From a virus (lineage: Duplodnaviria; Caudoviricetes), in IMG/VR virus record IMGVR_UViG_3300037424_000485, positions 96,001-160,000 of that record: 64,000 bases of DNA; one strand, 5' to 3'. The notes under the pieces were generated by a model. That model saw nothing but the letters and a program-made list of their open reading frames with translations. It searched no databases and was not told the DNA's origin. The position numbers and the translations under genes are program-made. Below, in pieces: positions 3,142 to 30,400 of the stretch. The stretch's first letter is position 1, and each line of letters begins with the position of its first letter.

Positions 3142-4488
3142 CTATCCTTTATTGTAAATATTTGTACTACCACCACTTCTTTTAGAGTCTTCTATCCATA
3201 AATCCATTTCAGAAACATCATACAATTTTAGAGATCTGTCATCAAGATACAATCTATTGATAATACCACTATGTCCAAATCTACTTTTACATATTTTATA
3301 AGCAACTTCACTTTCATATACCATGGCATCTTCATCAGATCCTAATATAGCTACAAAATCTGCTGTTGCTCCAAGGCCGGAACTTTCAGATATACTATTC
3401 ATATCAACTTCTTCTAGTGTTAGAAAAGATCCTGATCTGTTTAGCTGAGATACAGAAACAACAGGAATATTAAACTCAAAACCTATTGCTCTTAGTTCTT
3501 CTGATATTTTCTTAACATCTCCATACATTGAATCTTTTGAACCATATTCAGGTTTCATTAGATTAACATAGTCACAATATAATATTTCAGGGGCTTTTCC
3601 TCTCATGGCTAACTCTCTTAGCCATATTCTAAAATTAGCCGTTGATGCTGTACCAGTAGGAAATTCTTTAATATATAAATCTCCTCTCCCTTCCTGTTTT
3701 TTTAAAGTTTTTAATGCAGAATATAAATCTCTCTTCATCTGATTATTGGTATACATTCTGTTAATATCCAACATAGAATATATAGAATCGAATCTTTGGG
3801 CAAATGCTTTTTCTGACATCTCAAGAGTGCATATTCCAACGTTATGACCGTGCATAACCTGCCTGGTTATGATGTTGGCCATTATATTCGATTTTCCAGA
3901 ATGTATCTTCCCAATAAAAGCTGAAAATGTATAGGGGGGAAACCCACCATTTAAATATTCATCTAGTTGGGGTAGATATGTTGGAATTCTAATATCGGTA
4001 GCAGAAAATGTGTCTTTAAGGCGTTCAAATAATTTGCCCCAATAATCAAGCCCTAAATTTATTTTAATATCTTTACATAGAGCTGCCTCTACTAAAGACT
4101 TGATTTCATTGACATTACCACCACTATCGATAATATCAGCCGAATCCATAATAGCGCGTTTTATTGCCCTGTCTTTTAGATATATATTAGTATTCTCTAA
4201 TAGCCATGTATAATTACGAGAAGTGTCATAATCTATAGAATCCATTTCAGTAAAAAAATTTTTACAATCCTCACGAACACTTGAAGATACAGATTGTATT
4301 ACTATGTCTCGTTGAGGGACTTCTTTAAATTCTAGAAGGTGTTCACTAATAGATTTAAAAATTTCAGAATGTGTGGCATCTTCAAAGTATTCTGGTATGA
4401 AAACTGTTGTTATAGTTGTTAAATATTGCCTATCTTCTAGTGCAGTTTTGAACATGCATGATATTAAATAATTTGGATCTATTGTCAT
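3142..4488 (-). CDS. gp41: DnaB-family replicative helicase (T4 gp41-like)
   Basis: Walker A GKIHSGKS, TLEMSE, YCDYVNL, SQLNRSG, ISESSGL..TAD, KSRFG motifs. Confidence 0.93.
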   Translation of the reverse strand: MTIDPNYLISCMFKTALEDRQYLTTITTVFIPEYFEDATHSEIFKSISEHLLEFKEVPQRDIVIQSVSSSVREDCKNFFTEMDSIDYDTSRNYTWLLENTNIYLKDRAIKRAIMDSADIIDSGGNVNEIKSLVEAALCKDIKINLGLDYWGKLFERLKDTFSATDIRIPTYLPQLDEYLNGGFPPYTFSAFIGKIHSGKSNIMANIITRQVMHGHNVGICTLEMSEKAFAQRFDSIYSMLDINRMYTNNQMKRDLYSALKTLKKQEGRGDLYIKEFPTGTASTANFRIWLRELAMRGKAPEILYCDYVNLMKPEYGSKDSMYGDVKKISEELRAIGFEFNIPVVSVSQLNRSGSFLTLEEVDMNSISESSGLGATADFVAILGSDEDAMVYESEVAYKICKSRFGHSGIINRLYLDDRSLKLYDVSEMDLWIEDSKRSGGSTNIYNKG

Positions 4489-6131: not shown

Positions 6132-6738
6132 AGGTAAAAAATGGGAGTTTGCTTACGAACCAACCACTGTTGATGAAATGATACTACATCCTGATGTAAG
6201 GATAAGGCTCATAAAGGCCCTAAAAGAAATTCCAAATATTATGTTGATAGGAAGTCCTGGTATTGGAAAGGGAACATGGGTTAATATTCTACGGAAACAG
6301 ACTGGCTTTAATTGTCGTAAGCTGAATGGATCTGATGAAAGGGGTATAGATGTCTTTAGAGAAAAAATAAAACCATTTTGTTCTGTACCACCCTTAGAAG
6401 GTAGGTATAATATTATGTATTTAAATGAGTGTCTTGAAGAACATGAAAAGGTGAGAATTGGTGATGTTAATAAATGGGAATCTATTGAACTTAGAGATTT
6501 GAAAAATGATACTGAATATCCTATAGTATCCTTTAATATGAAAACAGGTCAATTAGAAAATGATACTTGTACAATAATCACTGATAAGATTGATGATATT
6601 TATGAATTGGAATTAGAAGATGGTCGAAAGATAAAGACAACAAAGAATCATCCTTTTCTTGTGAAAAATAATGATGGTGAAATCGTAGAAAAAGAATTAC
6701 AATATTTGAGTGAAAATGATGAAATAATCACATTGTGA
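6124..6738 (+). CDS. gp44: Clamp loader large subunit N-half (gp44/RFC, aa 1-102) fused to a split-intein N-fragment (102 aa)
   Basis: Walker A GSPGIGKG, LNGSDERGID, Walker B YLNE followed by intein block A CLEEHEKV and block B TTKNHPF; ends ENDEIITL-stop. Confidence 0.88.
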   Translation: MDKGKKWEFAYEPTTVDEMILHPDVRIRLIKALKEIPNIMLIGSPGIGKGTWVNILRKQTGFNCRKLNGSDERGIDVFREKIKPFCSVPPLEGRYNIMYLNECLEEHEKVRIGDVNKWESIELRDLKNDTEYPIVSFNMKTGQLENDTCTIITDKIDDIYELELEDGRKIKTTKNHPFLVKNNDGEIVEKELQYLSENDEIITL

Positions 6739-6804: not shown

Positions 6805-7750
6805 ATGAACGAAAGAAAATTAAGAACTCTGAAACGTTACTATAACGAAAGACAGAAACTACTATATAATGAATGGAAAGATGATATATTGATTGATGGT
6901 ATGTATCATTGTCCAGTATGTGATTATACTACTGATAATATAAACGGTTTATGTTGTCATTTAGGTAACAAAGATATAATAAAAATCATATATCATGAGT
7001 ATTTTGGTGACAACACTAAATGTGAAATATGTAATGAAAATACAACATTTTTGAGTCTTTCTAAAGGTCATAGTAGATTTTGTTTGTCGTGTAGTTTAAA
7101 ACGCAATGGTAAAAGATTATCTTCTGATAAGGTTAAACAATTACGTGAATCGGGGTTGTTGAAATATAACACAGATGTTATAAAAAGAAAAAATACAAAT
7201 AAAATAATTGGGGATAAAAATAAAATCAATATGTTGAGATATGTTGAGATATTTTAGAGATAATCCTGAAAAGAAGAAAGAATTATCTGTAAAGGTATCA
7301 AAATCCATGAGGGATAAGATCAAGAATGGTGATTTCACCCCTAATATATCAAACTGCTATAATGGTATTGTTATAAAACATGGTGGTATATCATATAGAA
7401 GTGCATGGGAATTTTCATTTCATCAATTAAATCCACATTTGTTGTATGAAAATATCAGAATACCCTACATATCACCTAAAGATGGTAAATGTAGAAGTTA
7501 TATTGTTGATTTTGTTGATGTTAATAAAAAGATATTGTATGAAGTAAAACCATTTATTAGACAGATGGATGATGTTAATATATCAAAACATAAAAGTGCA
7601 TTGAAGTGGTGTGAAGATAATGACTATATATATGTTTATATATCTGAAATATACTTTCATGATAATCTCAATACGGAGATTATTGAAAATTGGGACAATA
7701 ATATTAAAAAAAGGTTAAAATATTTTGTTAATGAAGACAATAAAAATTAA
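6805..7750 (+). pseudogene. Free-standing homing-endonuclease-like gene (Zn fingers plus PD-(D/E)XK, TnsA-N-like domain) between the split-intein halves, frameshifted by a 10-bp tandem duplication
   Basis: ATGTTGAGAT repeated at 7231-7240 and 7241-7250; removing one copy gives 936 nt = 311 aa; YRSAWE...YE..IPY...Y.VDF...YEVKP motifs; CATAAATA late-promoter-like box at 6779-6786. Confidence 0.75.
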
Positions 7751-21046: not shown

Positions 21047-21957
21047 TTAAAAGAAAATATCAAAGCATTTGCTTTGTGTTAGTATTTTTTCACGATTCTG
21101 AGGCTCTAATAAAAATTTTACCTTACCTACGAAAAACTTCTCAATCTGTTTTCCATAATCCAACTGTAGCCCATTTTCAGTGAATTCTTTAGGCCAATCA
21201 TAATAACTAACCACTGTAATCCCAAAGCGATTTCTTTTAAGATATACTACCTTGGCTTTATCCCCTTCTTTTATTCTTTCATATTTGTTCTGAATGTTAA
21301 ATTCTTTTAATAGCATATGATAATTACAAGCACCCTTGACATGATAAGGGGTTCCTTTTATGGCACAGTCATTCTTAATATACTTGCTCATATTATTAAT
21401 ACCTATATTAGCACTCAATTCTTCTGCTGGTGATGCTTCCATACTAATCTTATACTCATCTACATGTTTTCGTATATCATCGTCAGAATGTCCTTTAAGG
21501 ATCATTCCTAGCAGATGTTTTAATGCTTTGCGAAATATTGATGGGCATTCAGACCTAATAATAACAAGACCTTTTACATCTATCTTATCGCATGGCTTTC
21601 CATCATCATCAACTACATTATAACCATACATTTTCTTTTTAATAAAAAGTGCAGTACGACACACAATTTCTTGTTTAAATCCAATAGAAAAATCATCTCT
21701 TTCAACTATAGAGTTATACGTACCTATCTGAGTATTTTCAAACGCCTCATCTTCTACATTTTTTTCTACGATTTTTGATATTCTTTTAACAAAATCAATT
21801 TTATGAACATCGGGTATTTTATCCCAATGCTGTTTTGTAATTCCTTGATCTAAAAGAAAAGCCTCCACCATTATAAATAAACTATCAGTATCGATCTTCT
21901 CTAAATATAGGCGATATAATCAATCATATCGCCTATATTTCTATTCCTTTTTATCAT
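21047..21957 (-). CDS. gp43: Family B DNA polymerase C-terminal subunit (gp43B); motif C interrupted by an 11-nt gap
   Basis: MIKRNRNIGDMIDYIAYI-TAG-AGAAG-ATC then DTDSLFI...KQE...KKKMY...VKGLVIIRS; removing 11 nt gives DYIAYIDTDSLFI and 900 nt in frame. Confidence 0.85.
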
Positions 21958-21973
21958 ATTATTTTTCCTCTTT

Positions 21974-22159
21974 TTAATAATCCAATGGGACTACATTATA
22001 ATTATCCCCGAAACTATGTGTAACAATATATGTATCACCAGTTTTTACATCATACACCATATGTGGCTTATTGTCACCAAACTTTTCTCTCATATCCTTA
22101 TCAGAAGAACATCCAGATAATAATACACCAAGAATGATTATTAGTATTAGTTTATTCAT
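21974..22159 (-). CDS. Small lipoprotein
   Basis: Lipobox LLSGC after a hydrophobic signal. Confidence 0.6.
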   Translation of the reverse strand: MNKLILIIILGVLLSGCSSDKDMREKFGDNKPHMVYDVKTGDTYIVTHSFGDNYNVVPLDY

Positions 22160-22232
22160 AATATCTACCTTTGTGTTTGTTTATTCTCTATAGTGCCTAT
22201 ATTATCCGGTCTAGTTTTCATTATCTCTCCGC

Positions 22233-22454
22233 TCATCGGCCCGAGTTCCAGCCCTCTACATCATCGCTGTAAACCGCGCTCTCGCCGTCTTCTCTCTCGT
22301 CAGCGTAGTTTTCAAACCGGTTCAGGAGCATGTAACCTTTGCCGCATTTTCTCCGCAGGAGGGAGTTTCTGCCGTCATCGGCAACGCTTTCAAAACCCAT
22401 CTTCTTCCAGTCATCGGTTTTGTTGAGTTCGTTTATAATCTGGTCTTTCGTCAT
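22233..22454 (-). CDS. GC-rich small hypothetical protein, probable cassette cargo
   Basis: Visibly higher GC than the genome; GGAG RBS; own promoter. Confidence 0.6.
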   Translation of the reverse strand: MTKDQIINELNKTDDWKKMGFESVADDGRNSLLRRKCGKGYMLLNRFENYADEREDGESAVYSDDVEGWNSGR

Positions 22455-22506
22455 GTTCGTAGTCTCCGGGTTGGGTGGTGGGCTTATTGCCCCTCTCTAT
22501 GATTTA

Positions 22507-22535
22507 AATATATACCTTATTAAACAAGGAGTCAA
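22507..22535 (-). promoter_or_regulatory. Sigma70-type promoter next to attC site A
   Basis: TTGACT-17 nt-TATATT; upstream GTGAATTAAATAA also occurs at about 17638. Confidence 0.65.
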
Positions 22536-22591
22536 TAGAAAAAAGTATATTCTTTTATTTAATTCACTTTTTTTTCTTCGAAGGTCGGCCA

Positions 22592-22654
22592 GACTAACCA
22601 GCGGGTAAACGCGGAACCGCAAAAAGCGCGGAGCCGGTTAACTCCACGTTGGCC
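22592..22654 (+). mobile_element. attC-like site A (63 bp)
   Basis: GACTAAC-CAGCG-GGTAAAC-GCGGAACCGC...GCGGAGCCG-GTTAAC-TCCAC-GTTGGCC imperfect palindrome with bulges. Confidence 0.65.
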
Positions 22655-22656
22655 CG

Positions 22657-22887
22657 CTAGGCGTACTGCACGCCGATATTAAGATGGCAAATTAAATTAA
22701 AAACCTTCCCACATTCACCGCATGTATGGTCAAAAACGCCATCTGTTTTGCCCCGGCCATCGTCAGTACCCCAAATTGTCACAGAAACATCAACATCATC
22801 AATCTCGACATATTCACCACATCCAGGGCATATAACCTCAATAGGATTTTGAAGCCTGTTCATCTCACCCATAATAATTGTCCTCAT
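22657..22887 (-). CDS. GC-rich Zn-ribbon protein between attC sites A and B (inverted cassette ORF)
   Basis: CPGC and CGEC; bounded by GTTGGCC and GCCCAAC. Confidence 0.6.
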   Translation of the reverse strand: MRTIIMGEMNRLQNPIEVICPGCGEYVEIDDVDVSVTIWGTDDGRGKTDGVFDHTCGECGKVFNLICHLNIGVQYA

Positions 22888-22911
22888 AAATAGTAGTTAA
22901 TCGTTGCCGCT

Positions 22912-23005
22912 GCCCAACAAGTCGCTCCACACGGAACGCGGGAAGCTCCGTTTTTGGTTTATCTGCTACTCCCCGGGCCGCGTCCGGTGAGCTAAAACGG
23001 TGTGT
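22912..23005 (+). mobile_element. attC-like site B (94 bp), outer R box degenerate (GGT instead of GTT)
   Basis: GCCCAAC-AAGTC-GCTC(C)AC-A-CGGA(A)CGCGG...CCGCGTCCG-GTGAGC-TAAAAC-GGTGTGT with two extrahelical bases. Confidence 0.7.
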
Positions 23006-23043
23006 CCTATGTGTTCGTCAGATGTAAAGTAGTACATAATATC

Positions 23044-23304
23044 CTACATAGTGAAAAGTTCAGGTGGAGCTATATCATACAGTGATAATGTGTCTTCTCT
23101 ATACCACCACCCTGTAGTGTCATATGGCGATCTATAGACCTCTCTTAGTATATTATTATCTGTTTGTACTAGATAGCCTCTATCCCTCCTAATACTCTTA
23201 ACCACACCAACTTTACCATTGGCATGTGCTATCATATAATCATTCCAATTAGATACATCCCCTAAATTATTTATAGCTACCCTATCACCAACTTTAAATT
23301 TCAT
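23044..23304 (-). CDS. Small SH3/KOW-like protein with C-terminal IAPPELFTM motif
   Basis: MKFKVGDRV...GKVGVV. Confidence 0.55.
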   Translation of the reverse strand: MKFKVGDRVAINNLGDVSNWNDYMIAHANGKVGVVKSIRRDRGYLVQTDNNILREVYRSPYDTTGWWYREDTLSLYDIAPPELFTM

Positions 23305-23627
23305 ACCATCTCCATATCGAAAAGATTTTCTGGAACTATATTAATAAGTAGTATCTCAAGACCTTTCTCATGTATAACAATATCATGTCCATCTTCAAGA
23401 GACACACCAACAATTTCTTGATATGTGTCATTGGTGTGATATGTGTCATCGGAGTGTGATCTAACATCAACAACAATACCTACCTCTCCATTAGATCCAC
23501 GATATCCAATTTTATAATTATGAAGACCCATCATCTCAGCCATGATTTTACATCCAGTGAATATCATCCATCTATTAATAATCTTGACTTTACATCCAGG
23601 TAGTAACTCTATACCATTAATCTTCAT
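23301..23627 (-). CDS. Hypothetical protein with C-terminal IVPENLFDM motif
   Basis: Overlapping operon. Confidence 0.55.
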   Translation of the reverse strand: MKINGIELLPGCKVKIINRWMIFTGCKIMAEMMGLHNYKIGYRGSNGEVGIVVDVRSHSDDTYHTNDTYQEIVGVSLEDGHDIVIHEKGLEILLINIVPENLFDMEMV

Positions 23628-23943
23628 ATAATAAATCCCGTACTGATTTTATAATATTTCCATCTTGGTTATAATAATTATAATACTCATAATCATCATA
23701 TAAATGCAAGAGAGCTGGACACCTAGCAGACTCACCAAACATCTGTACTATCTGCTCAATTCCCTCTGGTGTATGTCTTACTGTACGATGTTTATACCCA
23801 AGTTTGACATATAGTGCATCCAACCATTGATGTACCTCAGTATAAGGTTTACCAAAAAACTCTATACATCTAGCTTCATGCTCTTCTCTCCACATTATAG
23901 ATAAGGCCCAAATAAGAAAATCATTAAACAGATATGGATACAT
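23617..23943 (-). CDS. His-rich hypothetical protein
   Basis: H...C...FG....VH.WLD, HR..RH..EG, H..DD pattern; the true start is probably internal. Confidence 0.55.
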   Translation of the reverse strand: MYPYLFNDFLIWALSIMWREEHEARCIEFFGKPYTEVHQWLDALYVKLGYKHRTVRHTPEGIEQIVQMFGESARCPALLHLYDDYEYYNYYNQDGNIIKSVRDLLYED

Positions 23944-24278
23944 TGATCTAATGCTAATGTATTCCAGAATTTATCATCTTTTGTATGGAGATTATATTTT
24001 ACATAATCCTCGATATCTTCTCTTTTATAAGCATATTTTTTAAAATATGTCCATAGATACTTATCTTGAATACCATGACATAAAACATAAAGCACGACAA
24101 TCCACTGAGGCATATCAATAAAAAATGCGAACACGGCGAATATGATATATATGATACCCATATGGATACCCATACTCACCCAATCATTAGATTTAGTTTC
24201 GGCTACTTCTCTTGATTGTAAATAAAAATCACTAAAAAAGTGTAGAAATACAGCTACATAAATCATCTGACCACCCAA
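23895..24278 (-). CDS. DUF3307-like membrane protein
   Basis: LHF.SDF.LQ, H..., HG..D, DQ..H motifs. Confidence 0.7.
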   Translation of the reverse strand: MGGQMIYVAVFLHFFSDFYLQSREVAETKSNDWVSMGIHMGIIYIIFAVFAFFIDMPQWIVVLYVLCHGIQDKYLWTYFKKYAYKREDIEDYVKYNLHTKDDKFWNTLALDQCIHICLMIFLFGPYL

Positions 24279-24466
24279 AAAAGTAATACTTATTTATTCT
24301 ACTATAAATTATAGTAAAATCCTCTGTTGTTTTTAATATTACATCATCTATACAGAAATAGCAACAAAAATGATTGCCAATGTGCTCATCACTACTATTT
24401 CTTTTCCAAAGATCATACCAGTCGCAGTATTCGCTATGGGATATTTGGTTTCTATCGCCCATTATT

Positions 24467-24940
24467 TCAAAATATCTTTTTTCCATCAAATAACCCCAAA
24501 TTAACACCCTCAAGCAACAATACCTGTTGTGTTTCATTTAAATATTTAAAGGCTGTCTTGTAGTGTACCCATCTCCATCTATCAATTTCTGGCCTTCTTT
24601 GCTCTGTAATCATACAGTAGAATGTACTATCACAAACAGGTGTTTTTTTAATTATACCATCAAACTCATATGCAAAGGCAACTAGTTGTTTTGGGATGTC
24701 AGAATATTTAGAGCATCCAAGCAAGGATCTCCTATACTTAAAACCACCTCTTATGATATCATCACGAAGGATTCCTGTTTCTTCTGTTACTTCCCTCCAT
24801 GCAGCTCTTAATTCGCTCTCACAGGACTCTTTAATTCCTTTTGGAATGCTCCACATTCTAACTGGTATGCCTGTTGGATGCCCTATTAGAATTTGCTTGT
24901 ATTTGTTTATGAGGAAGATCCCACATGTAGTCTTGATCAT
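24467..24940 (-). CDS. NUDIX hydrolase
   Basis: WSIPKG...ESELRAAWREVTEETG Nudix box; PEID..RW. Confidence 0.9.
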   Translation of the reverse strand: MIKTTCGIFLINKYKQILIGHPTGIPVRMWSIPKGIKESCESELRAAWREVTEETGILRDDIIRGGFKYRRSLLGCSKYSDIPKQLVAFAYEFDGIIKKTPVCDSTFYCMITEQRRPEIDRWRWVHYKTAFKYLNETQQVLLLEGVNLGLFDGKKIF

Positions 24941-25173
24941 TTAAGTCTCCACCCATATTTACCATCCTCTGATAAAACTAGTACAAGTGCAAGACCAACT
25001 ATTCCACACAAACCACTACAGAAAGCTATGACTAAAGACACGAAAATATCATATTTATACTGTTTGTCTTTAAGACTCTCGTATTCTCCTTGCCAGAATG
25101 CGAACATAAGACCATATGATATAAAAGACACAATAGGTATAGTAATTAAATATAATATAATTAGATATTTCAT
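24937..25173 (-). CDS. Small two-TM membrane protein
   Basis: Two hydrophobic stretches. Confidence 0.55.
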   Translation of the reverse strand: MKYLIILYLITIPIVSFISYGLMFAFWQGEYESLKDKQYKYDIFVSLVIAFCSGLCGIVGLALVLVLSEDGKYGWRLK

Positions 25174-25544
25174 TCTGAAATATCCTCATCTATATGTTTA
25201 TTTAAATCTTTAAAACTATGGAAAGATTCTGGATTAAAAGAATCAGCAAGTTCTGTTTTATGTAATGGATTTTTCTCATATAGCTCTGATATATTTGAGT
25301 ATCTTTCTAGAGCATACATATATATCATATCCATATAGGAATCATCTCTTAGCTTAAAAATGGTTCTCTGATATACAATATGTCCTAAGAAACTCCACCA
25401 TGCTAACATCCACCCAGCGGCTTTATATATATCACCACTGCTTGAATATACATACACGCCAATTACAGCAGACATTAAAGATAATATAATAGTAAAAATT
25501 TCTACCCCGCCTGTGTAAATATTAAACTTGTTTAACAGATTCAT
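25170..25544 (-). CDS. Membrane protein
   Basis: Two N-terminal TM segments. Confidence 0.55.
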   Translation of the reverse strand: MNLLNKFNIYTGGVEIFTIILSLMSAVIGVYVYSSSGDIYKAAGWMLAWWSFLGHIVYQRTIFKLRDDSYMDMIYMYALERYSNISELYEKNPLHKTELADSFNPESFHSFKDLNKHIDEDISE

Positions 25545-25603
25545 AATGTTTTATCTCATTGATGATATTTAATAACTCTTCATTAGGATTATTTAACAGC
25601 TTG

Positions 25604-25924
25604 TTAAACACCGTATTTAGCCTTGAGCTTTTCCAACTGACAAAGCTCTTGATTCTCAATAAATTTTCGGTGGTTATCTTCGTTATTCAGCCGTGCGGCT
25701 TCCTCGGCATCGGTTTCCAACCGCTTATAGCTTATTTTCACCTCAAACTGACTGCCATCGTAATAGGTTGACGTACTGCAATCTATATTTATGGTCGCCT
25801 TGTACTCATCAGGCACAAGGGCAAATTTATCAGACCACCATTTCAAAAACTCTTCCGGGCTACTCGGCAGGTCATAGGCACAAGACTCGGCTTCAAAAAC
25901 AATAACTTTAATTTCCTTTTTCAT
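25604..25924 (-). CDS. Hypothetical protein carried by the inserted cassette
   Basis: GGAGG RBS; stop lies at the GTTAAAC junction; GC-richer. Confidence 0.65.
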   Translation of the reverse strand: MKKEIKVIVFEAESCAYDLPSSPEEFLKWWSDKFALVPDEYKATINIDCSTSTYYDGSQFEVKISYKRLETDAEEAARLNNEDNHRKFIENQELCQLEKLKAKYGV

Positions 25925-25979
25925 AACTTCCTCCGTACATATGTGTTTATCCAGACATCAACTGAGCTTGGTGTTAGCA
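25921..25979 (+). mobile_element. Degenerate attC-like site closing the inserted cassette
   Basis: ...CTGAGC-TTGGT-GTTAGCA right arm; left arm TCATAAC-TT-CCTCCGT eroded into the ORF RBS. Confidence 0.5.
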
Positions 25980-26069
25980 TATCTCTGACCATTAAGAATG
26001 GTATGTCTACACATGATGTTATAGCCTCTGCCATAATACCATAAAATTTTCTAATAATCAATAACTTTA

Positions 26070-26077
26070 TATAAATA
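26070..26077 (+). promoter_or_regulatory. T4-type late promoter upstream of the HNH gene, followed by a hairpin (26094-26126)
   Basis: TATAAATA. Confidence 0.55.
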
Positions 26078-26163
26078 ATATTATATAAAAACAAACCCAC
26101 TAACCGTTGGTAGCGGATAATGGGTTCTAATCATAACATTTACTTATAAGGAAGTAAACAAAT

Positions 26164-26895
26164 ATGACTATATTTATTTATACACAAAAAACCAAGAAAT
26201 GTATTCAATGTAAAGAAATAAAATCTATAGATAATTTTAACAAAAGAATGACTGGAAAATATAGAGGTCAGTGTAGAATTTGTCAAAATAAAGCGAATAG
26301 AGATAGATATCACAATCACAGTAAAAACACATTGAAAAAATCCTCATTAGACTACTATAATAACAATAAAAAACATTACATGGCGGTACATAAAATATAT
26401 AGGACATCACTTGCATCATATGAAACATATGCACATCAGCTAACAGTAGAAGAAGATCCAATATTATCTGATGATGGTGTTTCTCTTGAGGTTAGATGTA
26501 AATATTGCGGTAAATATTTTAAGCCTACTAATAAAGAGGTATCATGTAGAGTTAGTGTAATAAAAGGACTATCAATAGGTGAATTAAGTCTTTATTGTTC
26601 TGATAATTGTAAAAAATCATGTGGGACATATAGACAAAGAAAAAATCCAAAAGGTTTTAAAATATGTACATCGAGAGAAGTACAGCCAGAACTTAGGAAA
26701 TTGGTTCTTGAAAGAGATAATTATCAATGTCAGTCATGTGATAATATTGATATCAAGCCATTACACTGTCATCACTACGAAGGTATTGAGATCAACCCTA
26801 TTGAAAGTGCTGATATTGATAATTGTATTACATTATGTAAAAAATGTCACAATGCTGTTCATAAGCATTGTGACATGAGAAGAAAAAAATGTTAA
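26164..26895 (+). CDS. HNH homing endonuclease, antisense, abutting the gp43A stop; paralog of 10323..11177
   Basis: Shares YETYAHQLT.EE, LEVRCKYCGKYFKPT, TSREVQP.LRKLVLERD, EGIEINPIESADIDNCITLCK. Confidence 0.85.
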   Translation: MTIFIYTQKTKKCIQCKEIKSIDNFNKRMTGKYRGQCRICQNKANRDRYHNHSKNTLKKSSLDYYNNNKKHYMAVHKIYRTSLASYETYAHQLTVEEDPILSDDGVSLEVRCKYCGKYFKPTNKEVSCRVSVIKGLSIGELSLYCSDNCKKSCGTYRQRKNPKGFKICTSREVQPELRKLVLERDNYQCQSCDNIDIKPLHCHHYEGIEINPIESADIDNCITLCKKCHNAVHKHCDMRRKKC

Positions 26896-28752
26896 TTATT
26901 TATCATATATCTTAATCTCATTGATGATATTTAATAACTCTTCATTAGGATTATTTAACAGCTTGTTAGCATATCTCTGACCATCAAGAATGGTATGCCT
27001 ACCACATGATGTTATAGCCTCTGCCATGTTAATATTAAAATATCTACTATATGGTACTGCCATAATACCATAGATAGAGTTAATGAGAATCTTAAAAGCC
27101 CATTGTAGATCATATTTTTGTTTTGCTTTATCTAATATTTTCTTCTTAGATTTCCCATCTTTTATAGATAACGATTTTTCGTAAAGAAGTGACATTTTGT
27201 TCTTCTCTTCTTTACGCTTAATAAATACCATTTTCTCTATTGTAGGTATAACACCTCTTTTCCCATTTTTAAACATACTACCACATGGTGCTATAGATAA
27301 CAATTTCTTTTCTATAGATTTATTAAATATATCTAATTTTTGACCATCGATATATTGAACCATCCCATCTTTTAATAAATAAAAAGGTGGAAATTTTTTA
27401 TTCCTTGCATGATCAACTACTATATCATAAAATGGCCTAGTTTCATCGTCTTTATTATGAATCCCTATACCAGCATTATAATCTACTACATGGTTTTCAT
27501 TAAAACCAATAATTCTACCATAATATGTTTCATTTGATATATTTAATATAATAATATGACTTGGGTATGAGCTTGTTATATCAAGATCCACTACCCAAGG
27601 ATGCAGTCCTTTATATGGTTCTTTAACAAAAGCGGCTGGAAACCATTCTTTATCTCCCCCCATCAATCTAGGAGCTGCTAGATTATTTCTACGATAGTAT
27701 ACTAACATAAGACCTTCAACAAGACCAACAGTTGTGTTATACATATCCATAGGGACACGACAAAGAAGTGTGAGTGATTGTATTAACGATAAATAACCGC
27801 ACTTCTTCTCTATATTTTGTATTAGAAGAGCATCGTTTATGTTATATTCACAATACAGCTGCCAATTTTTCATATACAACTCTTGTAGTGTGCCGTATTC
27901 TCCATAGTCTATCTTACCACCAAGATTTTCTACTTCAGCAACATGGTCTAGTTTATTACTTTCAAGGTTGTTTGTGGTATACCATCTATAAACACTCATA
28001 TAATCGAGTAGTGTTACACCAGCAATATTAATATGCTGAACCCCAACTCTATCAACATAAGAATTTACATTATTAATGGGCGATAACTTCTTATAAAGCT
28101 TGGTATCATCCCCAAATAATACTTTGGTGCGATTTATGATATAAGGGAGATCGAAACCCCCTCTGACTTTTGCTTTTCTATCATCACAATAAAACCATCC
28201 GGTTACAACATCACACATATTTGTGTGTTTCCAGTTAAAATATTGTGTCAGTAGGTCATATTCATCTTTACAGTGATGATAAGTGAGATTTTCTATACCT
28301 TTGTCATTAACAAAAGGATGCAGTCCAAATGATTGGATGCCTCTGTTATGAGCTATGGTAATAATTGTGATAGGCCATTTAGCCTCGTCTGGTTTTGGAA
28401 ACTCGTCAGCACTATGAACTTCTATATCTTCAAAATGAATGACAAGATGCGGCACTTCCATATCATCATCAGATATACCGCTATATCTTTCAGATAAAAA
28501 TTGGATAACAGGGTTAACTTCGTTCTCATAACATTGTTTATTTTTATCTATAAAAGACTTATATTGGGCGTAATTACTAAATGATTTCCTTCCTACTGAA
28601 ACTCCATCAATAGTTTTAACATCTTCATCTTCATAGTGTTTTAAAAAAACAAAAGGTGAAAAATCTATACAATCATAGAATCTTTCACCTTTTATCGACT
28701 CCCATAAATGGAGTCTTGACTGTCTGGTATCATAATGTGCATTTGTAAACAT
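26896..28752 (-). CDS. gp43: Family B DNA polymerase N-terminal subunit (gp43A: exonuclease, motifs A and B)
   Basis: EDIEV, FDLPYI.NR, YN..D exonuclease motifs; DLDITSSYPS (A); KILINSIYG (B); ends before motif C. Confidence 0.93.
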   Translation of the reverse strand: MFTNAHYDTRQSRLHLWESIKGERFYDCIDFSPFVFLKHYEDEDVKTIDGVSVGRKSFSNYAQYKSFIDKNKQCYENEVNPVIQFLSERYSGISDDDMEVPHLVIHFEDIEVHSADEFPKPDEAKWPITIITIAHNRGIQSFGLHPFVNDKGIENLTYHHCKDEYDLLTQYFNWKHTNMCDVVTGWFYCDDRKAKVRGGFDLPYIINRTKVLFGDDTKLYKKLSPINNVNSYVDRVGVQHINIAGVTLLDYMSVYRWYTTNNLESNKLDHVAEVENLGGKIDYGEYGTLQELYMKNWQLYCEYNINDALLIQNIEKKCGYLSLIQSLTLLCRVPMDMYNTTVGLVEGLMLVYYRRNNLAAPRLMGGDKEWFPAAFVKEPYKGLHPWVVDLDITSSYPSHIIILNISNETYYGRIIGFNENHVVDYNAGIGIHNKDDETRPFYDIVVDHARNKKFPPFYLLKDGMVQYIDGQKLDIFNKSIEKKLLSIAPCGSMFKNGKRGVIPTIEKMVFIKRKEEKNKMSLLYEKSLSIKDGKSKKKILDKAKQKYDLQWAFKILINSIYGIMAVPYSRYFNINMAEAITSCGRHTILDGQRYANKLLNNPNEELLNIINEIKIYDK

Positions 28753-29216: not shown

Positions 29217-30400
29217 TCAGCCTTTTAAAGCAGCGATTGGTGAAAGTTTGTATACTACTTTCACCAAATCCAGTTGGGATGAAATAACTTTTTCTATATC
29301 CTTATACGCACCAGCGGCCTCATCCAAATCAGCTTGATTTCGGATACCATGAACCACACCGATATCATCAAGACGCTTGATCTCATCCCCAATACCAATC
29401 TACGTTGAGCATCCTTGCGCCCCATTGCACGACCCGCTCCATGGGAGCAAGACATGAATGAATCTGGATTGCCTAAACCCTCGACAATATATGAGTTAGA
29501 CCCCTGAGATCCAGGAATTATACCAACTTCTCCTTTCTTAGCAGAAGTAGCCCCTTTTCGATGAACCCATACATTCTTACCAAAGTGATTTTCCGATATG
29601 CAAAAGTTGTGATGGATGTTGATCATCTCGTTAGGGAAAGATACATATTCCCCTTCATACTTATCAACACAATTGTTAACAACTTCCATGACACGGAACA
29701 TCATCTTCTTACGAGATAAGAAAGCAAATTCAGTACAATAATTCATATCAGTAATATAATCACGTCCCTCATCCGTATCCCCTGGCAGCCAAGCCAGATC
29801 TTTAGGAGCACCAGTATGCCATTTATCATTAAATTTTTGAGCTAAATTATTGTAATGCTTGGCAACTTTACCACCCAAGTTACGAGATCCAGAATGTACC
29901 ATGATCCATAAAAACCCATCTTTATCACGCTGTAACTCGATAAAATGGTTGCCACCTCCCAGAGAAGAAAGCTGATATCTTGCTGACTCATATTCAACAG
30001 CTACAGGGTAATTAAAATCTAAATCAGGCATGTCCATATCTTCTACAGGTTCTTTATTATTCCAACCTAGACCCATAGGAACAACTTGACGAACAGCGTT
30101 CATAATGGATTTTAAGATGTCTTTGGAAATAGGGCCTGAATATTCTGATTTAACAGCACACATACCACAGCCAATATCCATACCCACTGCATTAGGAATT
30201 ATCACATCCTCACATGCTATAACACCACCAATCGGCATACCATATCCCATGTGAGTATCCGGCATTAATGCTATATGGCGGTGCATAAATGGAAGGTTTG
30301 CTAAAACAGTCGCTTGGTCTATTGCTCCTTGCTCTGGCTCATTACACCAAGATTTTATAGGCACTCTATTTCCGGTTATTACTCGCATTTTATTTACCAT
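29217..30400 (-). CDS. rtcB: RtcB RNA ligase; a 1-nt frameshift at the G run 29387-29390 separates the C-terminal DEA.GAYK motif
   Basis: MPDTH.GYG.PIG, VG.DIGCG, GGGNHFIE, HSGSR, HRKGAT, SHGAGR; the shifted frame continues DEIKRLDDIGVVHGIRNQADLDEAAGAYKDIEKV...PIAALKG. Confidence 0.9.

Follow-up and report, generated by a model that had tools for sequence, protein, structure and literature searches.

A putative integron-type cassette in a decayed duplicate of a phage DNA polymerase gene end, with the empty site preserved in the intact copy

How did a unit resembling an integron cassette come to lie in a polymerase gene end of a large T4-like phage, and did an integron integrase put it there? 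Integron cassettes are usually thought to move within bacterial arrays. The window, i.e. the whole stretch of 64,000 nt that was analysed, comprises positions 96001-160000 of a 204-kb virus sequence from a sediment metagenome and has a GC content of 0.33. In it, a family B DNA polymerase is carried by two genes ~5 kb apart (21146-28752); between them lie a Nudix gene, genes for small membrane proteins and an HNH gene, together with cassettes and a duplicated gene end. The PolB N-part gene encodes the exonuclease domain and the first part of the polymerase domain as judged by Pfam, and the polymerase is ~28% identical to those of T4-like cyanophages and rhizobiophages. Beyond this gene, an RtcB-like ligase ORF (29294-30400, minus strand) has an odd tail, and a 46-aa ORF in another frame (29217-29357) looks like its true C-terminus; a frameshift, a sequencing error or recoding could be the cause. 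The coordinates of the features are collected in Table 1.

Table 1. Features of the locus and attC-like sites on related metagenomic contigs (L numbers). Window positions are given unless a contig is named; a slash marks the crossover.
Feature	Position	Strand	Evidence
Putative integron-type gene cassette, 370 nt, TTAAACACC to ...GGTG	25604..25973	+ (attC top strand)	Junctions; GC; start common with L015, L016, L017
Cassette ORF, 106 aa, intact	25604..25924	-	ORF list; 15 homologue clusters
Left piece of decayed PolB N-part (gp43A-like) 3'-end duplicate	25541..25603	-	Local alignment to 26903-26965
Right piece of decayed PolB 3'-end duplicate	25974..26043	-	Alignment to 26966-27073
Intact PolB N-part gene, 618 aa	26896..28752	-	Pfam DNA_pol_B and DNA_pol_B_exo1
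Empty-site control ATTTAAC-AGCTT-G/TTAGCA, G26965/T26966	26953..26971	+	Sequence; pair of inverted core-like boxes
R''-like box GTTTATC (GTTTAAC in relatives)	25945..25951	+	Alignment with L015, L017
Rest of vestigial attC: L''-like CATCAAC (25956-62), 6-nt loop, TTGGTG	25956..25973	+	Fold; CATCAAC resembles L'' of true attCs
PolB C-part, at far island edge	21146..21679	-	Pfam match only: PF00136 positions 266-438, inside 290-aa open frame
HNH endonuclease gene, between intact gene end and displaced duplicate	26164..26895	+	Pfam HNH E 0.003, below curated cut-off
Second attC-like site, GC 0.6	22592..22654	+	R2 18.9 bits, E 0.1 in 137 kb, 0.006 in 8 kb
Third attC-like site, R' degenerate (GGT)	22912..23005	+	R1 13.8 bits; R2 19.1 bits, E 0.005 in 8 kb, filters off
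attC-like site	L017 5839-5926	Antisense to ORFs	R1 25.5 bits, E 4e-4
attC-like site	L018 1985-2047	Antisense to ORFs	R1 23.1 bits
attC-like site	L017 3369-3455	Antisense to ORFs	R1 17.5 bits
attC-like site, cassette's own	L017 5011-5099	Antisense to ORFs	R1 16.4 bits
attC-like site, cassette's own	L015 624-713	Antisense to ORFs	R1 15.9 bits
attC-like site	L035 6630-6693	Antisense to ORFs	R1 30.3 bits

The final ~170 nt of the PolB N-part gene are present twice, as an intact copy (26903-27073) and as a decayed copy (25541-26043). Around 26965/26966 the intact copy reads ...ATTTAACAGCTTG/TTAGCATATC. The left piece of the decayed copy terminates CAGCTTG/TTAAAC at its junction with the insert. When 25541-25606 was aligned locally with 26903-26968, the last 57 nt were identical (57/57), and a DNA search against the phage's own genome gave 98% identity for this piece. 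The right piece begins at 25974, where the junction reads GGTG/TTAGCATATC, and extends to about 26043. It is ~87% identical to the intact gene end and carries deletions of 1 nt and 36 nt, the latter between CTGCCAT repeats. The duplicate is split at G25603/T25604 with no target base lost, and compared with the intact copy both target halves are kept, contiguous and in register across the insert.

The sequence is thus as the earlier note on this DNA had described it: a duplicate split after CAGCTTG by a 370-bp insert, as the junctions and the alignment bear out; an insert opening with a perfect GTTRRRY, read here as G/TTAAAC; and an intact gene end that serves, at G26965/T26966, as a built-in empty-site control. 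The claim that the target was not duplicated holds in so far as nothing beyond a 5-nt core is duplicated or lost, but TGTTA stands at both the left and the right junction. The crossover can therefore be placed anywhere within those five bases, G/TT being one of the allowed placements.

It could still be argued that nothing was inserted at all, the matches to the polymerase end being chance or independent fragments and the ORF a resident phage gene. The flanking matches are short (about 60 and 70 nt), and nothing else speaks for this reading. The perfect identity on the left, the similarity on the right in register across the junction, and a GC step at each end of the insert speak against it. 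It is left with practically no probability, and is refuted by the flank alignments together with the DNA relatives of the ORF, which stop exactly at the junction. A transposon, insertion sequence or MITE was also considered and rejected, since TTAAACACC... and ...GCTTGGTG at the ends do not form inverted repeats, a transposase is lacking and only the 5-nt core is common.

The far end of the decayed duplicate reaches the start codon of the next gene (25544). For this reason the remnant looks like the original gene end, which would have been displaced when the HNH gene came with a new one. The insertion point lies 70 nt from the polymerase stop codon and adjoins the HNH gene. Over the 3' part of that gene (26700-26900) many diverged contigs from three sediment runs were recovered, at a depth up to 10 times that of the phage; a family of related HNH genes is abundant in the sediment samples. 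When the three sediment runs were compared with 24500-28000, no contig spanned 25604-25973; as the assemblies break at the duplicated segment, this carries no weight for or against an empty allele of the remnant. In one run a ~90% relative of the cassette ORF was present, with the likeness ending at 25949. Neither DNA searches nor PolB peptide patterns retrieved related phages with the same locus, and metagenome scans added almost nothing.

The insert itself has a GC content of 0.42, above that of the window, and the stop codon of its single ORF is formed by the first three cassette bases (TTA on the plus strand). The earlier note had called this ORF inverted. It is antisense to attC, but with respect to PolB it is not inverted: both are on the minus strand, and the ORF is oriented like the phage genes. 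A promoter-like site is located directly upstream of it (26061-26033, minus strand). GC3 is 0.47 for the cassette ORF and 0.23 for the polymerase, a foreign composition that speaks for the cassette reading, and on the window branch 16 changes from G or C to A or T were counted, the reverse being seen 6 times. Compared with its homologue on contig L015, the ORF shows 17 synonymous and 17 non-synonymous codon differences, corresponding by a crude count to a dN/dS of roughly 0.3. Taken together, GC3, the AT-biased changes and the codon differences indicate that the cassette gene has spent some time in DNA rich in A and T and remains constrained.

The 106-aa protein is predicted to fold (pLDDT 88) into a small beta-alpha-alpha-beta-beta unit followed by a long C-terminal helix. 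No Pfam or NCBIfam family and no PDB fold was matched by it; a marginal PHROG was found, and its AlphaFold cluster matches are to uncharacterised proteins only. Its 15 homologue clusters are all metagenomic, and a language-model search placed the family in viruses. Most homologues are found in tight phage operons with RecT, YqaJ, YopX, DnaB, RNA ligase, PolA or lysis genes, and these show no flanking palindromes or attC.

The closest DNA relatives are organised in a different manner. The window matches L015 and L016 (86%) and L017-L022 (78%) over 25603-25949 only. L015 and L016 are 100% identical across exactly 435 nt (L015 622-1056) and unrelated on either side, and along the same span L015 and L017 are 80.6% identical. 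The unit so defined consists of the gene and a ~90-nt imperfect palindrome 5' of it. Read on the strand opposite to the ORF, it opens G/TTAAACACC in L015, L016 and L017 as well as in the window, TTA being the ORF stop, so that the left junction CAGCTTG/TTAAACACC falls on exactly the base at which the cassette begins in three other contexts. At its other end the unit reads ...GCAAAGCG/TTAGCG in L015 and ...TTAAAGCG/TTGTGC in L017. Both the identity block of L015 and L016 and the homology block of L015 and L017 end at a GTT, or at most 7 nt from one, on both sides. In L015 and L016 the unit is flanked on both sides by CGTTA, and the cassette that follows opens with TTAGCG, which closely resembles the phage target TTAGCA. 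The start TTAAACACC is complementary to GGTGTTTAA at the inner edge of the palindrome, and the R' and R'' boxes of a cassette must be complementary in just this way. The standard orientation, an ORF followed by its own attC, was rejected for the relatives' unit because L015 and L016 diverge right past the stop codon and stay identical through the upstream palindrome. Thus, the insert is a discrete unit bounded by G/TT core sites with a TTRRRY start, as expected of a cassette; its single ORF is antisense to attC, where a cassette would have one ORF, usually promoterless, in the attC top-strand orientation.

The palindromes were examined with attC covariance models. Eleven true attC sites from plasmid-borne class 1 and class 2 integrons were gathered, and since RNAalifold predicted no structure for the eleven, the R and L box pairs of model R1, built from six class 1 attCs, were assigned manually after the catB3/aadA pairing. 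The model is narrow, with arr-3, dfrA27, dfrA14 and catB11 all missed, and true attCs held out of it scored 15.6 bits or were missed. A broader model, R2, whose seed includes metagenomic sites, gave 29 bits for held-out arr-3 and 16 bits for held-out catB11. On the metagenomic loci R1 matched only the strand antisense to the ORFs. The relatives' sites scored 15.9-25.5 bits (E 4e-4 to 0.17), a weak detection, and the sites at L017 5011-5099 and L015 624-713 coincide with the independently mapped unit. As held-out true attCs score no better or are missed, scores of this size are also those that real sites reach with the narrow model. L017 and L018 carry at least four successive attC-like sites. 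The strong R1 match on L035 and a second, partial attC-like match there (6889-6974, likewise antisense to the ORFs) are on a phage-like contig, beyond a metallo-beta-lactamase-fold gene with a faint match to the anti-Pycsar protein Apyc1.

Compared box by box with class 1 attCs taken from plasmid records (catB3, aadA2, aadB, aacA4, blaOXA-1 and arr-3), the relatives' site, GTTTAAC-AATTG-CATTAAG...GGCTTATG-GCAAAGC-GTTAGCG, resembles that of catB3, GTCTAAC-AATTC-AATCAAG...GGCTTATT-TCAGGC-GTTATGC. Like catB3 or aadA2, the L015 site has its boxes in this order, a spacer of 5 nt and an additional base in L''. It differs in that the relatives score 16-25 bits whereas class 1 sites score 52-84, in that the canonical extra base is T on the top and A on the bottom strand, not C and G, and in that all of the relatives' ORFs are on the bottom strand.

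An integron-integrase gene fragment is associated with one of these arrays. The end of L015 encodes the first 111 residues of a recombinase (3753-4085), located 2.7 kb from the cassette. This N-terminus matches TIGR02249 (E 5.8e-24), and its sole NCBIfam matches are two integron-integrase models. Among the 40 matches listed for a tblastn search against plasmids (of at least 5000 records), all are integron-integrase loci, annotated or unannotated, and these include a cyanobacterial IntI (52% identity) and IntI1 (44%). The eight longest near relatives of the fragment were then scanned with TIGR02249 (cut-off 265 bits), which was the best match for all eight. The complete ones, P0016 and P0032 (~460 aa, whole model covered), pass with 496 and 467 bits, as do three others of partial coverage (315-366 bits); the remaining three, just below the cut-off at 230-248 bits, cover only the N-terminal half to two-thirds of the model. 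Association of an array with an integron integrase is therefore found for the relatives only. The strand of intI with respect to the attC sites in L015 is as in class 1 and in a cyanobacterial integron. ORFs are antisense to attC in the window, in L015-L022 and in L035, whereas ORF and attC are on one strand in class 1 integrons and the Kovacikia array. In L015 (1-4086) the intI fragment lies downstream of, and on the same strand as, genes for a tRNA-nucleotidyltransferase HD domain, a DNA ligase, a NikA-like protein and a C5 methylase; the attC-like sites are on the strand opposite to intI and these phage-type genes, in the standard intI-attC geometry. Phage-type genes (ligase, C5 methylase, RecT, HNH and radical SAM) form the neighbourhood in L015 and L017. 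No DNA match to the L015 cassette was found in plasmids. These results support the assignment of the insert to an integron-type cassette family.

The earlier note had named a complete lack of association between homologues and attC as evidence against its interpretation. The two closest groups of homologues do lie in attC arrays, one of them beside the intI fragment, but most homologues are plain phage genes, and for the wider protein family such a lack is nearly the case. Two further likenesses on these contigs may be mentioned. A 425-nt block, 99.8% identical between two otherwise unrelated phage contigs (L004:5908-6332 and L005:2567-2991), holds a 71%-identical homologue of the ORF. The block does not end at GTT on either side, and it contains a compensated inverted repeat, GTTACACGCC ... 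GGCGTGTAGC, that matches the L015-type cassette start and R''; the block may once have been a cassette. The integrase-linked contig (L015:2979-3011) and a T4-like phage contig (L005:2280-2312) also have in common a 33-nt intergenic stretch (97% identity), which may be a common regulatory element.

At the right end of the insert, the attC-like arm described in the earlier note turned out to be half a site. An R''-like box, a spacer and an L''-like box, the only parts that the eye can recognise, are followed by only 11 nt, TGAGCTTGGTG, up to the junction. The spacer, CAGA, has 4 nt where the relatives have 5, and CATCAAC stands for their CATTAAG. In the circular form of the cassette, GTGTTTA at the R''-like box would pair with the cassette start TAAACAC, and this form folds into a 39-nt hairpin whose R stem and inner stem (CATCAA with TTGGTG) have 7 bp each, at -5.8 kcal/mol (z -2.7). 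Of the hairpin with extrahelical bases that the note had asked for, the hairpin is thus present in the circular form, but the fold has no bulged or extrahelical base; the 3' spacer is lacking and the R'' box has a mismatch. Neither R1 nor R2 matched over 25943-25979, even with filters off, so the window copy is not recognised as an attC by either of the models. The 24-nt interior of the stump does not significantly resemble the attC of L015 or L017 (p 0.4-0.7), the phage's two other sites or the target. Past 25949 the homology with the relatives continues in weak form, and the remnant around the stump has suffered deletions too. The stump is either an internally deleted attC or one that was never complete. 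Given half a site and no detection by the models, the right junction is not demonstrable as a true R' end, although it is compatible with one.

Three explanations of the insertion were weighed against these observations. At G26965/T26966 the crossover is at 5'-GWT-3' and the product is a simple insertion, as at an attG site. Insertion of a cassette by IntI at an attG-like secondary site is the best reading and, in our judgement, somewhat better than an even bet. It is favoured because it explains the exact insertion, the canonical left end, the rare paired-box site and the cassette units nearby. When both strands of the 204 kb are counted, RYYYAAC-N5-GTTRR is found at three places, GTT at 6475 and GTTRR at 1674, and the three are the two copies of the target site and one hybrid made by the insertion. 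Such a paired-box target would be unexpected for a random GTT or for random microhomology; it is suggestive only, as it was spotted after the fact, following a model match.

The main rival is illegitimate recombination by copy choice, in which synthesis would have switched from phage to donor at TGTTA, copied one cassette and returned at the next GTTA, the donor being a cell with a cassette array or another phage with one. As GTT cores flank every cassette, this would mimic the product of the integrase with no integrase involved. TGTTA at both junctions, and AGCTTG near both, also fit it. L015 and L016 represent an array of the donor type, with their CGTTA flanks and target-like next cassette, and the incomplete attC fits as well. 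The right end of the insert, AAC-TG-AGCTTG-GTG-TTAGCA, can also be read as the target AACAGCTTGTTAGCA with two small insertions, but this likeness is not significant (AGCTTG match, p 0.2). Illegitimate recombination at GTTRRRY-like repeats has been proposed for phage CALINs by Qi et al. (PMC9892861). Yet a microhomology of 4-5 nt is weak, copying would have had to begin precisely on a cassette boundary and end on or close to the following one while leaving the target complete, and the target is the rare paired-box site, not just any of the GTTs. This explanation is judged rather unlikely, at something like one chance in four.

According to the third explanation the G/TT position is coincidental: a stray fragment was captured at a double-strand break made by the HNH endonuclease, or the whole region, remnant and insert, was imported by mosaic recombination. 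The position of the insertion near the polymerase stop and beside the HNH gene, in a segment duplicated on arrival of that gene, fits this, as does the abundance and variability of related HNH genes in the same samples; the gene family also moves in blocks that do not end at GTT, such as the one common to L004 and L005. A break has two different ends, however, and here the core is the same at both junctions and the target is complete, which makes this explanation the less likely one. In addition, the left end is the cassette boundary of three integron-type contexts, and no related phage with the region was found by DNA search or PolB peptide patterns. It is given a low probability, well below that of copy choice.

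In the integrase reading, the sequence of events would be as follows. A circular cassette consisting of one ORF and an attC, with the ORF antisense and the attC reading ...G/TTAAAC in the circle, would have been recombined by the integron integrase of a host cell with a GTT of the phage (G/TTAGCA) in the secondary-site or attG manner. An attG-type reaction would give a simple insertion with no loss or duplication of the target beyond the common core. The target would have been the displaced, non-functional 3' end of the PolB N-part, left behind when the HNH gene and a fresh gene end entered; as this copy was non-functional, the insertion would have cost nothing. The attC, presumed complete at that time, would later have decayed to the stump, locking the cassette in place. 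The earlier note had proposed that a host IntI acted on the phage DNA. The cassette family and the G/TT geometry agree with this, but the phage lacks such an integrase and TGTTA fits copy choice too, so that the interpretation of that note is, overall, partly supported.

The surroundings of the insert may also be of the cassette type. Two more attC-like sites are located in the polymerase-splitting island, 2.6-3.4 kb from the cassette and on the same strand. Only the one at 22592-22654 passes the default R2 filters, and the narrow R1 gave no match in a scan of the whole genome. These sites flank GC-rich minus-strand ORFs, one of which has weak zinc-ribbon matches. With these sites and ORFs, 22233-23005 may be regarded as a mini cassette array, and the island would hold three cassette-type units in one orientation. 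The phage genome contains no gene for an IntI-like recombinase; a CALIN is defined by at least two attC sites within ~4 kb and no intI.

A wider and more speculative proposal can be put forward. The relatives might constitute a phage-linked integron lineage with standard intI-attC geometry and every cassette ORF on the attC bottom strand, whose cassettes carry phage genes (DNA ligase, methyltransferases, radical SAM and the 106-aa protein) beside RecT and HNH modules. Such a lineage would trade accessory genes among unrelated phages, including large lytic T4-like ones, and the PolB island with its three units would be a landing pad. We consider this doubtful. The part that may be new is the consistently antisense ORFs and phage-type cargo of arrays beside an integron integrase, on the basis of short metagenomic contigs.

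The presence of a filled and an empty site in one phage genome provides a concrete case of cassette entry into a lytic-type phage, as well as defined sequences for a recombination assay. The same small gene can be fixed in a phage genome, can be an integron-type cassette, or can have returned to a phage as such a cassette; these three states bear on the sharing of accessory, possibly anti-defence, genes between phages and integrons. To our knowledge, surveys of attC in phages and experiments in which integrases place cassettes off-site, at any GTT, have so far not been linked by a base-resolved natural event.

Several known systems can be compared with this locus. Split gp43 polymerases of T4-related phages with inserted homing-endonuclease genes were reportedly described by Petrov, Ratnayaka and Karam in 2010. 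As in those phages, two genes encode the family B polymerase, and mobile DNA that includes an HNH gene separates them; here, however, the gap of ~5 kb also holds integron-type cassettes, and the endonuclease left a duplicated gene end. A lone aadB cassette at a secondary site in the RSF1010-derived pIE723 is said to have been found by Recchia and Hall in 1995. IntI inserts cassettes at GWT sites of genomes (attG), with a double-stranded target and a single cleavage (Loot et al., bioRxiv 10.1101/2022.09.11.507474), and off-target activity of integron integrases has also been studied (Souque et al., PMC10127599). The present insertion resembles such events in being a lone cassette outside an array that is placed between G and TT of a GWT, neither duplicates nor deletes target sequence and is hard to excise afterwards. 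It differs in its recipient, which is the genome of a large T4-like phage where those events involve a chromosome or plasmid, in an ORF that runs antisense to attC, in an attC reduced to a stump, and in a dependence on integrase that is only probable. Integrons, CALINs and functional attC sites occur in temperate and virulent phages (Qi et al. 2023, PMC9892861). That work and this locus agree in that a phage genome lacking an integrase carries cassette-type units and attC-like sites, in that the type of the accessory genes is unknown or anti-defence, and in that illegitimate recombination is raised as an entry route. The sites of Qi et al. were found with IntegronFinder and shown to recombine, with no empty-site comparison, whereas at this locus an internal duplicate allows one insertion to be placed to the base, but its site is not detected by the attC models. 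The locus is thus not a new mechanism but a natural instance that joins cassettes in phages with off-site insertion, both already published, and a clean example, since the intact duplicate shows the empty site.
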